This document shows positions 56,181-60,887 of a stretch of 64,000 nt of DNA, piece after piece. The notes beneath the pieces are model-generated. The model saw only the letters and a list, made by a program, of their open reading frames with translations, ran no database searches and had not been told where the DNA came from. Position numbers and translations under genes: made by a program. Where the stretch lies: the sequence record OR880646.1. One strand, given 5' to 3'. The stretch's first letter is position 1. Every line of letters begins with the position of its first letter. Origin of the DNA: Escherichia phage ECP2301.

Positions 56181-59100
56181 ATGGCTACTTTAAAACAAAT
56201 ACAATTTAAAAGAAGCAAAACCGCAGGTGCACGTCCTGCTGCTTCAGTATTAGCCGAAGGTGAATTGGCTATAAACTTAAAAGATAGAACAATTTTTACT
56301 AAAGATGATTCAGGAAATATCATTGATTTAAGCATTTCCGCTGGCGGTAATATCAGTGGAAATATCACACAAACTGGAGATTATTTACAGAACGGTACAT
56401 ATAATCTCAATGGAAATCAGTTTGTTTATGCAGGAAAATATATTGAATTTTTACCTAAAACAGCTGGTAATGGTGCATGGGCAAATCAACACCTAAATAA
56501 AGCTCCTATCTTTACAGATTTGAGCTCAACTACTTCCGTTTCAGAATATCATCCGCTGATTAAACAACGCTATAAAGATGGAACTTTTTCTGTTGGTACG
56601 TTAGTAAACGAAGGAAGTTTTAAAATTCATTATATCAATGAATCGGGAACTTCAAAATACTGGACATTTCGTAGAGATGGTGGATTTGTTGTTGATACAG
56701 GAAGTTTGACAGTAACAGATGGAAATATTTCTGCTTCTGGTAATATTAATTCGGCTACTGGGGTAGTTTCTGCTCCGCAAATCAATACAAAGACTATAGT
56801 ATTTGACACAAAAGCATTTGGACAATACGATTCACAATCATTAGTTCAATATGTTTATCCTGGAACAGGTGAAACAAACGGAATCAATTACCTTCGCAAA
56901 TTCCGTGCTAAATCTGGCGGTACAATTTATCATGAATTGGCTTCTGCACAAACCGGAAAAAGTGATGAACTTTCTTGGTGGACTGGTAATACAGCGGTTA
57001 ATAAACAAATGGGCCTTCGCAATGATGGTTCTTTAGTATTACGACGTTCACTTGCAATTGGTACAATTACAACAGATGAAAACATCAATAACTACGGTTC
57101 TACTGGAGCAATGGGTGAATGTTATATAGTTATTGGTGATGCATCAACAGGTTTATCATACAAAAAAACTGGGGTATATGACTTAGTTGCTAGTGGTCTT
57201 TCTGTAGCATCTATTACTCCTGATAGTTTCCGTAGTACGCGCAAAGCGATTTTTGGACGATCAGAAGACCAAGGTGGTACGTGGCTTCTTCCTGGCCAGA
57301 ACGCAGCTCTTCTTTCAGTTCGTACTGAAGTTGACCAAAATAATAACGGAGATGGTCAGACACATATTGGCTATAATAGTAATGGTAAATTTTATCATTA
57401 TTTTAGAGGCAGAGGAAGAATGGCCATTGGAATGGCCGAAGGACTTATTGTTGAACCAGGAATTTTAGATATTAAAACTAGTTCAAATACATTAAGTCTG
57501 CGTGCTGATGGTACCGTCGCTTCTGTTCAAACATTAAAGCTTAATAACGGATTATATTTTAATAGTGATGGAACTAATGCTTCTCTAATTTTTAAAGCAG
57601 CTTCAGGTATTGATGGTACTAAACAAATACTTTGGGAAGGTGGTACTCGTGCTGGACAGAATAAGAGTTATGTAACTGCTAAAGCTTGGGGAAATTCATT
57701 TAATTCATCTGGCGATCGTAATCGTGAGACGGTTTTTGAAGTATCAGATGGACAAGGATATTATTTTTATGCTCAACGTGTAGCTCCTGCACCAGGTTCA
57801 ACAACTGGCGCAGTTCAATTTAGAGTTGCTGGAGCATTATTAACTTCTGGCGGTATTACATCATCTGGTTCTATTGTTACTGAATCTAGTTTAGTTGCTA
57901 ATAATGGATTATCTGTAAACGGACAAGCTAAATTTGGCGGAACTGCTGATGCATTAAGAATTTGGAATGCTGAATATGGTGCCATTTTCCGTCGCTCAGA
58001 AGCAGCATTACATATTATCCCGACTCCTAAAGATGCTGGTGAAAGTGGTGGAATAAGTAATCTCCGCCCGCTAAGTATTAGTCTTAATAATGGTATGGTA
58101 CAAATGCGCCATTCTGTTACGTTAGGAGATGATGGCGCTGGCGGTAATATGATTACTGTGGACAATGACAGTAAGCGTGTTGTATTAGCAAGTCATAGTC
58201 GTATTGCTCCTAATTTCAGAATGCAATTAGGACAAAATGCTTATATAGATATTGAGGCTTCTGATGGAGTTCGCCCAGCAGGTTGTGGTTCATTTGCATC
58301 TCAGAATGACGTAAATGTCAGAGCTCCAATTTATATGAATATAGAGCGTACTGCTGCTTCTGAATATATTCCCATTGTTAAACAACGGTATGTAAATGGT
58401 GATAGTACTTATTCTATTGGCACATTAATTTCTCAAGGAGACTTCCGCGTTCATTATCACCAGGGCACGAGTACTACCGGTACTGATTTAAGCTGGGAAT
58501 TCCGTCGCAATGGTGATTTCCGCGCGGCAGGTAAAATTATTGCCGGTGCTGCTACTTTTGGCACTGATGGTAATATTACCGGTGGTTCCGGTAATTTTGC
58601 TAACCTAAATACGACTTTAAACCGTAAAGTTAATTCTGGATTTATTACCTACGGTTCAACCGAAGGATGGTATAAGTTTGCAACAGTAACAATGCCACAG
58701 AGCGCAGCTACAGCAACATTTACATTGACTGGTGGTAGTGGGTTTAATGATGGATTAAATACCCAATGTTCTATAAATGAAATTGTTCTTCGTACCGGTA
58801 ATAACAATCCTCCCGGATTAAATGCTGTATTATATAATCGTTCATTAAACGGATTTCGTAATATAGCTTATATTAATACACATGGGGATACATACGACAT
58901 TTATATAAATGTCGGTCCTTACGCAAACCAAATGACTTGTTCTTGGAATGCGTCGGAGCAAGTTACCGTTGAAGTCGTTGGCATTAATGGAACAACTCAA
59001 TCTCCTGTAGAAGAATTACCTTCTGGTTATGCTACTGGACAAGTTGCTAATGTTCTTAATAACTTAGTTGATCGCGGTAAAGTTAAGCGTTACGAAGCTT

Positions 59101-60062
59101 ATTCTGAAATAGCTATTAATAATCAAACTGGCATTCGTATTAGAAGCAACGGCGATAAAACTGGTTCTGTTGCTACAATGCTACGAAATGATGGCGGTAG
59201 TTTTTATATTCTGTTTACAGATAAAAATGCCACCGATGGCGCAGCAACTGTTAACGGTGATTGGAATAGTAAACGTCCTTTCGCAATTAACTTAACAACC
59301 GGCGAAGTGTTAATGAATAATGGCATAGCTGTTCGCAGCGCTGCTTTATTCTACAACAGCATAAACGTCAAAGATAATGGTTCTATTAACTTTGATAAAT
59401 CGGGTGCGAACCCGAGAAACATGCGTATATTCCATGCTGGTGATGGAACTCGTGGTAACCGTATTGAAATTGCTGATGAAACTAACTATATTGCTTACTT
59501 TGAAAAAACTCCAGGTGGAGCTAACCGCTTTGTAGTAAATAATGCTACTGTAGCTGGTGTTAACCAAATGAATTCATTTGGTATTAATATCAATAACGCA
59601 CTTGGTGGAAATAGTATAGCGTTTGGTGATAATGACACCGGTATTAAGCAAAATGGCGATGGATTATTAGACATATATGCGAATGGCGTACAGACTTTCC
59701 GTTTCCAAAACGGTGATTTGTACTCATACAAAAATATAAATGCTCCAAACGTTTATATTCGTTCTGATATTCGTTTAAAATCCAACTTTAAACCTATCGA
59801 AAATGCACTCGATAAAGTTGAAAAACTTAACGGTGTCATTTACGATAAAGCTGAATACATCGGTGGAGAGGCAATTGAAACTGAAGCGGGTATTGTGGCT
59901 CAAACACTGCAAGACGTTTTACCAGAAGCTGTCCGTGAAACAGAAGACAGTAAGGGTAATAAAATACTCACTGTTTCTTCTCAGGCCCAGATTGCTCTTC
60001 TGGTTGAAGCTGTGAAAACACTTTCTTCTCGTGTAAAAGAACTTGAATCTAAACTTATGTAA
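56181..60062 (+). CDS. 37: long tail fibre distal subunit with C-terminal intramolecular chaperone domain
   Basis: 1293 aa; C-terminal ~99 aa beginning SDIRLK (59763-60059) resembles autoproteolytic chaperone domains. Confidence 0.9.
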   Translation: [1293 protein letters not shown]

Positions 60063-60064
60063 AA

Positions 60065-60080: not shown

Positions 60081-60092
60081 TAAGGATTTTTA

Positions 60093-60887
60093 ATGGCAAT
60101 TGTAGGTGTTCCTGGCTGGATTGGTGAATCTGCCGTGAATGAAACTGGACAACGTTGGATGGATGCTGCAATGAAAGCAGTTCGTGTTTCAGTTCCTGGT
60201 TGGATGAGCTCAATGGCCGGACAATCTAAAGAAGTATATTACAGCATTGGTGCTAGCAATTCTTATAATAAAGACACACTAATAAATTATCTCAAATCTC
60301 AAGGTAGTACTCCTGTTGTTGTTACTATTACTGGTAACTTAGTTTCTTCATCTGCCGGGCAACCTTGCTTAGATTTTCCTAGTTCATTAACTAATGCTTA
60401 TGTAACGCTTATTATAAATGGCGGTGTAACAGTATATGGTCGCGGAGGACGCGGCGCGCAAGCGGGAAACCAGGCGGGTGAAGCTGGTGGTACTGCAATT
60501 AACAATGGTATAGGTACTCGTCTACGAATCACTAACAATGGAGCAATCGCTGGCGGCGGCGGTGGTGGTGGCGCCCAATCAACTGATAATGGATGGGGAG
60601 GTAAATATGTTTCTGGCGGTGGCGGCGGACGTCCTTTCGGAGCTGGTGGTAATAATGGAGCAAAAGCTCCGGGTGCATCAGCATCTTTAACATCTCCAGG
60701 CGCTGGCGGAAAAATGTATTCCGGCGTTGGATACTACGGTGGTGACGGTGGTAATGTTGGTGAACGAGGTAAGGATGCGGTTAGATTGAACGGCTATTCG
60801 AACTCACCTGGCGCAGCAGGTAAAGCTGTTACTGGTAATGCTCCAACTTGGACTAAAGTTGGTACAATATATGGTGCAAGAGTATAA
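60093..60887 (+). CDS. 38: tail fibre adhesin with glycine-rich motifs (T2-type gp38)
   Basis: 264 aa; repeated GGGGG / GxGG motifs separated by variable segments. Confidence 0.85.
   Translation: MAIVGVPGWIGESAVNETGQRWMDAAMKAVRVSVPGWMSSMAGQSKEVYYSIGASNSYNKDTLINYLKSQGSTPVVVTITGNLVSSSAGQPCLDFPSSLTNAYVTLIINGGVTVYGRGGRGAQAGNQAGEAGGTAINNGIGTRLRITNNGAIAGGGGGGGAQSTDNGWGGKYVSGGGGGRPFGAGGNNGAKAPGASASLTSPGAGGKMYSGVGYYGGDGGNVGERGKDAVRLNGYSNSPGAAGKAVTGNAPTWTKVGTIYGARV

Follow-up and report, generated by a model that had tools for sequence, protein, structure and literature searches.

The distal long-tail-fibre tip of Escherichia phage ECP2301: a T2-type gp37-gp38 module with a predicted self-cleaving S74 chaperone domain

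Which protein binds the receptor at the long-tail-fibre tip of Escherichia phage ECP2301, the distal fibre subunit gp37 or the small protein gp38 encoded directly after it? In phage T4, the C-terminal tip of gp37 binds OmpC and lipopolysaccharide (LPS) directly and gp38 is an unrelated chaperone, absent from the virion (PMC12892980, PMC6851490). In phage T2, the archetype of the T2-type adhesin system, gp38 is itself the adhesin (PMC3157838). We addressed this question on a stretch of 64,000 nucleotides (nt) of the phage sequence (record OR880646.1), hereafter the window, in which an earlier note, made from the sequence alone, had claimed a T2-type module made of a gp37 ending in a self-cleaving chaperone domain and of a glycine-rich gp38 adhesin. 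Our analysis indicates with high confidence that the locus encodes a canonical T2-type distal long-tail-fibre tip of Tequatrovirus, and the contrast that the note had drawn with T4, whose gp38 serves solely as a chaperone, agrees with PMC12892980 and PMC6851490.

Gene 37 (56181..60062, + strand) is an open reading frame (ORF) with an ATG start encoding the precursor of the distal long-tail-fibre subunit, 1293 amino acids (aa) long. Gene 38 (60093..60887, + strand), a T2-type tail-fibre tip adhesin gene also starting with ATG, encodes 264 aa. Both end coordinates, taken from the ORF list, include the stop codon, and a gap of 30 nt separates the two genes. In a PHROG scan, gp37 was assigned over its full length to phrog_1699 'long tail fiber protein distal subunit' (E=0), and gp38 to phrog_2056 'tail fiber protein; host specificity' (E=8e-102). 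The E-values of the family matches exclude that either is a chance ORF.

The whole of gp38 is covered by two adhesin families. PF21721 Gp38_N matches aa 1-42 (64.7 bits for a cut-off of 25, E=7.3e-18) and PF05268 GP38 matches aa 47-264 over its complete profile, positions 1-218 of 218 (245 bits for a cut-off of 25, E=8.3e-73). Among solved structures, the best match is the receptor-binding domain of PP01 gp38 (PDB 9V85, E=1.9e-55, aa 39-264), and S16 gp38 is also recovered (PDB 6F45_D, E=7.1e-46). With an identity of 57-61% to T2 gp38, the protein passed the similarity check on which its identification as a T2-type adhesin depended.

It could be argued that gp38 is only an assembly chaperone of the T4 kind and that the gp37 tip binds the receptor, since the gene lies at the position of T4 gene 38 and several homologue records carry the label 'distal long tail fiber assembly catalyst'. 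This explanation is scarcely credible against the family matches and the two solved adhesins, and T4 gp38 is very different in sequence from adhesin-type gp38 (PMC6851490). Nor does gp37 have the T4 layout of a receptor-binding needle and head with no removable chaperone, as its C-terminus, just upstream of the intergenic gap, is an S74 domain. A PDB search with full-length gp37 retrieved gp34 fragments and S16 gp37 only, and no match to the receptor-binding tip of T4 gp37. As to the labels, 'distal long tail fiber assembly catalyst' or 'tail assembly protein' is often attached to deposited T2-type gp38 genes (T6, ime09, RB18, SA21RB). On adhesin-family gp38 proteins, 'assembly catalyst' is the T4 function transferred by annotation.

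The adhesin gp38 can be divided into two parts. The first is an N-terminal, T2-subtype attachment domain (aa 1-42, 60093..60218, + strand), in which W9, W22 and W37 are invariant in the six adhesins aligned (window, T2, EL, PP01, T6 and S16). The tryptophans of this domain have been described to insert into pockets on the gp37 tip by Dunne and Leiman, who also described the polyglycine-II sandwich (PMC6851490). The second is a specificity domain (aa 116-264, 60438..60884, + strand) formed of a glycine-rich conserved core with variable loops in between. Glycine accounts for 23% of the residues of gp38 and for 32% over aa 116-264, and the six-sequence alignment reveals invariant glycine blocks, GRGG at 116-119, GGGGGGG at G154-G160 and GGGGGRP at 175-181, between which the segments vary. 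The alternation of glycine-rich motifs and variable segments announced in the note was thus recovered. As read from the sequence, this layout corresponds exactly to the GRM/HVS pattern of Trojet et al. (PMC3157838) and to the polyglycine-II sandwich of Dunne and Leiman, and the matches to 9V85 and 6F45_D suggest that gp38 would adopt the sandwich fold.

The alignment with T2 that had been proposed for mapping the variable segments gave an identity of 59% over the specificity domain, with different loops. Five loops, A to E, have been defined in PP01 (PMC12892980) and we placed their counterparts in the window by alignment to them, all on the + strand. Loop A spans aa 122-127 (60456..60473). 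Loop B, at aa 164-173 (60582..60611), reads TDNGWGGKYV against QANNWAGKYV in PP01; loop C, at aa 187-192 (60651..60668), reads NNGAKA against NNGARW; and loop D, at aa 207-214 (60711..60734), reads KMYSGVGY against N--TGTGY. Loop E, at aa 229-236 (60777..60800), is unlike that of PP01. The note had predicted that these loops set the host range; it holds insofar as they set receptor specificity, but goes too far in that the receptor is one component of host range.

The other half of the module is gp37. Its last 99 aa (S1195-M1293, 59763..60059, + strand), that is the extreme C-terminus of the protein, form an intramolecular chaperone or Peptidase S74 domain with a predicted release after trimerisation, a length that agrees with the segment of about 99 aa pointed out previously. 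PF13884 Peptidase_S74 ('Chaperone of endosialidase') matches aa 1195-1252 over its complete profile, positions 1-58 of 58 (56.4 bits for a cut-off of 22, E=3.7e-15). The residues S1195, D1196, R1198 and K1200 of the S-D-x-R-x-K motif are invariant in the seven gp37 proteins compared (window, T2, KRT47, vB_Eco_EL, PP01, T6 and S16). From this invariance and from the alignment, the autoproteolytic site is predicted at R1194|S1195 (codons CGT TCT, 59760..59765, + strand), within NVYIR^SDIRLK, which would leave a mature protein of 1194 aa.

With database homologues of the gp37 C-terminus we built a profile, which was searched against PDB chains. It matched 6F45_A, the S16 gp37 construct (E=1.7e-18), 8JOV, another tail fibre (E=8.8e-10), 7DC3, the autoprocessing domain of MYRF (E=1.4e-7), and 3GUD, the released chaperone of the GA-1 neck appendage (E=8.5e-4), so that the C-terminus does align to intramolecular-chaperone domains, as had been anticipated. 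The latter structure starts at the homologous serine, its SDERHK (residue 1) being aligned to SDIRLK of the window. Once trimerised, gp37 of S16 cleaves itself at DLNVS^SDRRIKK and the cut exposes the gp38 docking surface, while a cut at DVYIR^SDGRLKI has been predicted in the fPS phages (PMC7917993).

Several points weigh against this reading of the gp37 C-terminus. The structure prediction that had been suggested for this region was run as an AlphaFold2 monomer model of aa 1129-1293. It showed a long terminal helix (model residues 139-164) but its mean predicted local distance difference test score (pLDDT) was only 57, and a Foldseek search of this model against the PDB returned no match at E<=0.001, the best E-value being 0.47. 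The poor quality of the model is explained by the shallow alignment (10 sequences) and by the fact that a monomer was modelled for an obligate intertwined trimer. A large protein search with the gp37 C-terminus had yielded short proteins only (<=290 aa), with few S74 fragments, many fragments of prophage tail fibres having only the GDNDTG block in common with gp37, and no deep alignment of the chaperone domain. The putative chaperone fold is consequently drawn from sequence profiles, and cleavage, gp38 docking and receptor use would be transferred to this phage from homologues.

Given such a model and a cleavage that is predicted, one may ask whether the S74-like domain is kept in the mature fibre as an inactive relic, gp38 binding elsewhere. 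We regard this as highly unlikely. The S-D-x-R-x-K motif has kept its Ser and Lys, both of them invariant, and the domain is 93% identical to its counterpart in T2, reportedly processed. C-terminal proteolytic processing of T2 gp37 is reported to have been described by Drexler et al. in 1986 (cited in PMC3157838). Moreover, it is the cut itself that exposes the gp38 docking surface in S16 (PMC7917993).

By analogy with the experiments on T2, S16, PP01 and KRT47, from which cleavage, docking and receptor are inferred, a pathway can be proposed for a cleaved, T2-type tip. A late transcript g36-g37-g38 would probably start at the motif TATAAATA at 55482, upstream of g36. In the 1293-aa precursor, the S74 chaperone would aid the register and folding of three gp37 chains into a beta-helical fibre, then cut itself off at R1194|S1195 through a Ser1195/Lys1200 dyad. 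The cut would expose the gp37 tip, on which a single gp38 monomer could dock by its three-helix N-terminal attachment domain, with W9, W22 and W37 as prongs. The polyglycine-II sandwich would then display the five variable loops for binding an outer-membrane protein, most likely OmpC.

The two partners of this docking step fit each other. The N-terminus of gp38 (aa 1-46) is 96% identical to that of T2, and the gp37 tip residues just before the predicted cut are identical in the window, T2 and KRT47. A T2-type gp38 N-terminus together with a T2-identical gp37 tip fits the lock-and-key pairing of gp37 and gp38 subtypes described by Trojet et al. (PMC3157838).

The arrangement can be compared with better known systems. 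T2 has an alike architecture, with conserved gp37 N-terminus and last 165 aa, the latter being 93% identical both to T2 and to KRT47; its gp37 shaft differs, with an identity of 65% over aa 1-1056 and 48 additional aa. The S16 gp37(3)-gp38 complex (PDB 6F45), from an OmpC-binding phage, is a case of this design with a solved structure: the gp37 tip, beta-helical and cleared of its chaperone by the S^SDRRIKK cut, bears one gp38 monomer, which has tryptophan prongs and a polyglycine-II sandwich. It differs in that S16 belongs to the genus Gelderlandvirus, its gp38 is about 47% identical, and its gp37 has a longer, divergent tip before the cut and a chaperone with a C-terminal extension. PP01 has a gp37 C-terminus of another subtype. 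The S74 chaperones of the K1F endosialidase, the GA-1 neck appendage, the T5 L-shaped fibre and MYRF are like that of the window in matching PF13884 over its full length, in having the S-D-x-R-x-K motif where the domain starts and in their C-terminal position on a trimeric fibre. However, their removal leaves the receptor-binding tip itself exposed, whereas in the window the domain stands on a T-even long tail fibre and its removal would make a docking site for a separate adhesin. T4 shares the locus and its gene order, and the N-terminal region and shaft of its gp37 are homologous. A paper on S16 presents the T2-type arrangement, not the T4-type one, as the common form among T-even phages; the arrangement is common and well characterised among them, and therefore not unusual.

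The next question is which receptor such an adhesin would recognise. By tblastn against a phage collection and by direct comparison, gp38 showed no difference from its counterpart in Shigella phage KRT47 (100% identity) and was 98.1-99.6% identical to those of ESh26, CrRp10, ime09, Sf22 (98.9%), SA21RB and SP21535. KRT47 and Sf22 are cited from Tinney et al. 2022 as OmpC-dependent, ompC mutants resisting infection (PMC12892980), with 'a strong reliance on OmpC' (PMC11654681). Because its gp38 is identical to that of OmpC-dependent KRT47, we predict that ECP2301 most likely uses OmpC, which is thereby favoured among the receptors considered in the note (OmpA, OmpC, OmpF, FadL and Tsx). The OmpC binder PP01 is also a close comparison, being 63% identical over aa 116-264 and having similar loops B, C and D. 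In PP01, loop D cross-links to OmpC loop 5, and the cleft separating loops 5 and 7 of OmpC is engaged by loop E (PMC12892980).

This assignment also has points against it. Loop E, critical in PP01, differs in the window gp38 and is unrelated to its PP01 counterpart; the OmpC evidence on KRT47 and Sf22 is second-hand, taken from the papers citing it; and the KRT47 gp37 shaft differs (51% identity over aa 1-1056), although this should not affect receptor choice. Among the receptor assignments of PMC12032242, ime09, CrRp10, KRT47 and Sf22 are unmentioned. The T2-type architecture could accordingly hold with a receptor other than OmpC, namely OmpA, Tsx, OmpF, FadL, more than one receptor, or LPS. 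Small changes in variable segments are known to switch receptors in the gp38 family (PMC12032242, PMC3157838), the dissimilar loop E and the second-hand KRT47/Sf22 evidence would leave room for it, and the N-terminal half of gp38 is T2-like, T2 using FadL and OmpF (PMC3157838). We nevertheless consider another receptor improbable. Since gp38 of KRT47 is completely identical, any difference in receptor must have its source elsewhere than in the adhesin. PP01, whose receptor-binding domain is the closest match among solved structures, binds OmpC, and loops B, C and D, three out of five, are like those of PP01. OmpC thus stays the favoured receptor of this T2-type tip.

The identity with KRT47 does not extend to the whole locus, which appears as a mosaic when nucleotide identities to EL, KRT47 and T2 are traced in 60-nt blocks. 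Up to 59597, the window is 85-100% identical to EL and 33-48% identical to KRT47 and T2. Over the roughly 300 nt from 59658 to 59957 the relation is reversed, with 55-85% identity to EL and 90-100% to KRT47 and T2. Beyond about 59960, EL, KRT47 and T2 give converging values as far as the variable region of gp38, where KRT47 alone reaches 95-100%, EL being at 42-77% and T2 at 49-68%. The point at which the EL-like shaft gives way to the KRT47/T2-like tip hence falls between about 59600 and 59660, in the first 60 nt or so of a conserved block containing the GDNDTG motif (gp37 aa 1140-1169, 59598..59687, + strand). KRT47 and Sf22 belong, with ime09, CrRp10 and ESh26, to the Tequatrovirus ime09 group, in which the gp38 proteins other than that of KRT47 are 98.9-99.6% identical to the window's. 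The gene order of KRT47 is that of the window, and between about 59660 and the end of t its DNA is 95-100% identical, whereas the window shaft comes from a vB_Eco_EL-like lineage. Over the whole protein, gp37 is 91.7% identical to vB_Eco_EL gp37 (89% at the nucleotide level).

The GDNDTG block recurs, at about 60-75% aa identity, in many prophage tail-fibre entries ('phage tail protein') of E. coli, Shigella and Salmonella. Its prophage carriers have another distal tip, ending in QKYINGTWYNVAQV or QIYINGAWRSVSG, without S74 domain. One tentative interpretation, which we hold to be possible but rather doubtful, is that the locus is a recent natural chimera, in which a vB_Eco_EL-type shaft and a tip cassette of the KRT47/T2 type (roughly the distal 130 aa of gp37, the chaperone domain, gp38 and t) would have been joined by recombination in the GDNDTG block, a block that could serve as a shared joint for tip exchange between virulent T-even phages and temperate prophages. 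That fibre tips are exchanged at conserved motifs has long been familiar from the fibres of T-even phages, lambda, P2 and Mu, and the mosaic junction is hence an illustration of this and no discovery.

The shaft of gp37 shows further signs of shared modules. A region at aa ~443-648 (nt 57507-58124) is homologous to the C-terminal trimerisation domain of gp34 (PF21446, PDB 4UXE/5NXF) and is 29% identical to aa 906-1107 of the window's own gp34, which is consistent with module sharing among fibre subunits. A search of gp37 for gp36 homology found none, the gp34-like domain at aa 443-648 being all that appeared. The shaft also holds an internal duplication of two segments of about 100 aa, at aa ~93-190 (56457-56750) and ~698-800 (58272-58580), which are 40% identical (pairwise E=1e-22) and contain WTFRRDGGF and WEFRRNGDF, respectively. 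A T4-type needle was also considered for gp37. As the protein contains a single HYH and no T4-like repeats of the iron-binding HxH motif, this candidate was rejected.

The 30-nt gap between g37 and g38 contains an intercistronic hairpin of the C(UUCG)G type, AGAGGGC-UUCG-GCCCUCU (60064..60081, + strand), a terminator-like site with a folding energy of -13.4 kcal/mol (z=-2.1). The AAGGA Shine-Dalgarno sequence of g38 lies 3' of it. The position of the hairpin is kept in T2, KRT47, EL, PP01, T6 and S16 while both sides of the stem vary (AGAGGGC/GCCCUCU, GGGGC/GCCCC and AGAGCC/GGCUCU), the T2 hairpin being identical to that of the window. This suggests a conserved RNA element, for example a transcript stabiliser or a partial terminator. 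Some deposited records have a 'terminator' annotated near this gap. A second G+C-rich hairpin with a UUCG loop is found after g35, at 55454-55475.

The neighbouring genes place the module in its genomic setting. Upstream lie ORFs of 1289, 371 and 219 aa, and downstream an ORF of 218 aa followed by one of 90 aa on the minus strand. These neighbours include gp34 and gp35, assigned to the proximal-subunit and proximal-connector families of PHROG, as well as gp36 (Pfam PF03903) and the T holin (Pfam PF11031), and the position of the 90-aa ORF matches the annotated asiA of T2 and KRT47. The locus is the canonical T-even long-tail-fibre block g34-g35-g36-g37-g38-t-asiA of Tequatrovirus, a gene order common to T2, KRT47, EL, PP01, T6 and S16. 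A motif scan located the T4-type late-promoter consensus TATAAATA upstream of g36 (55482..55489, + strand). It is the sole late-promoter match from the end of g35 to g38, and the motif occurs 18 times in the window for 8.2 occurrences expected. The G+C content rises locally to 0.42-0.47 at gp38, against about 0.36-0.39 for the fibre genes upstream, because of the glycine coding in gp38. Separately, aa 58-123 of the proximal hinge connector gp35 (nt 54506-54703) match PF15711 ILEI (33.8 bits for a cut-off of 27). One would not expect the fibre hinge protein of a phage to match a family of this name, 'Interleukin-like EMT inducer', a FAM3/PANDER-type domain.

The analysis adds no biology to a system known since 1986-87 and structurally solved, in which the T2-type adhesin, gp37 processing and the polyglycine sandwich are all established. 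The module of ECP2301 belongs to what is known because its adhesin is identical to a published one and a deposited sequence matches its shaft at 92% identity; the particular combination of shaft and tip is the sole new element. If the GDNDTG block does act as a joint, it would allow receptor-binding tips with different folding-chaperone strategies to be swapped. For the phage itself, the analysis means that ECP2301 should adsorb via a monomeric gp38 adhesin identical to that of KRT47, and should hence be OmpC-dependent, which is relevant to annotation and to phage therapy, with aa 122-236 of gp38 as the target for host-range engineering.

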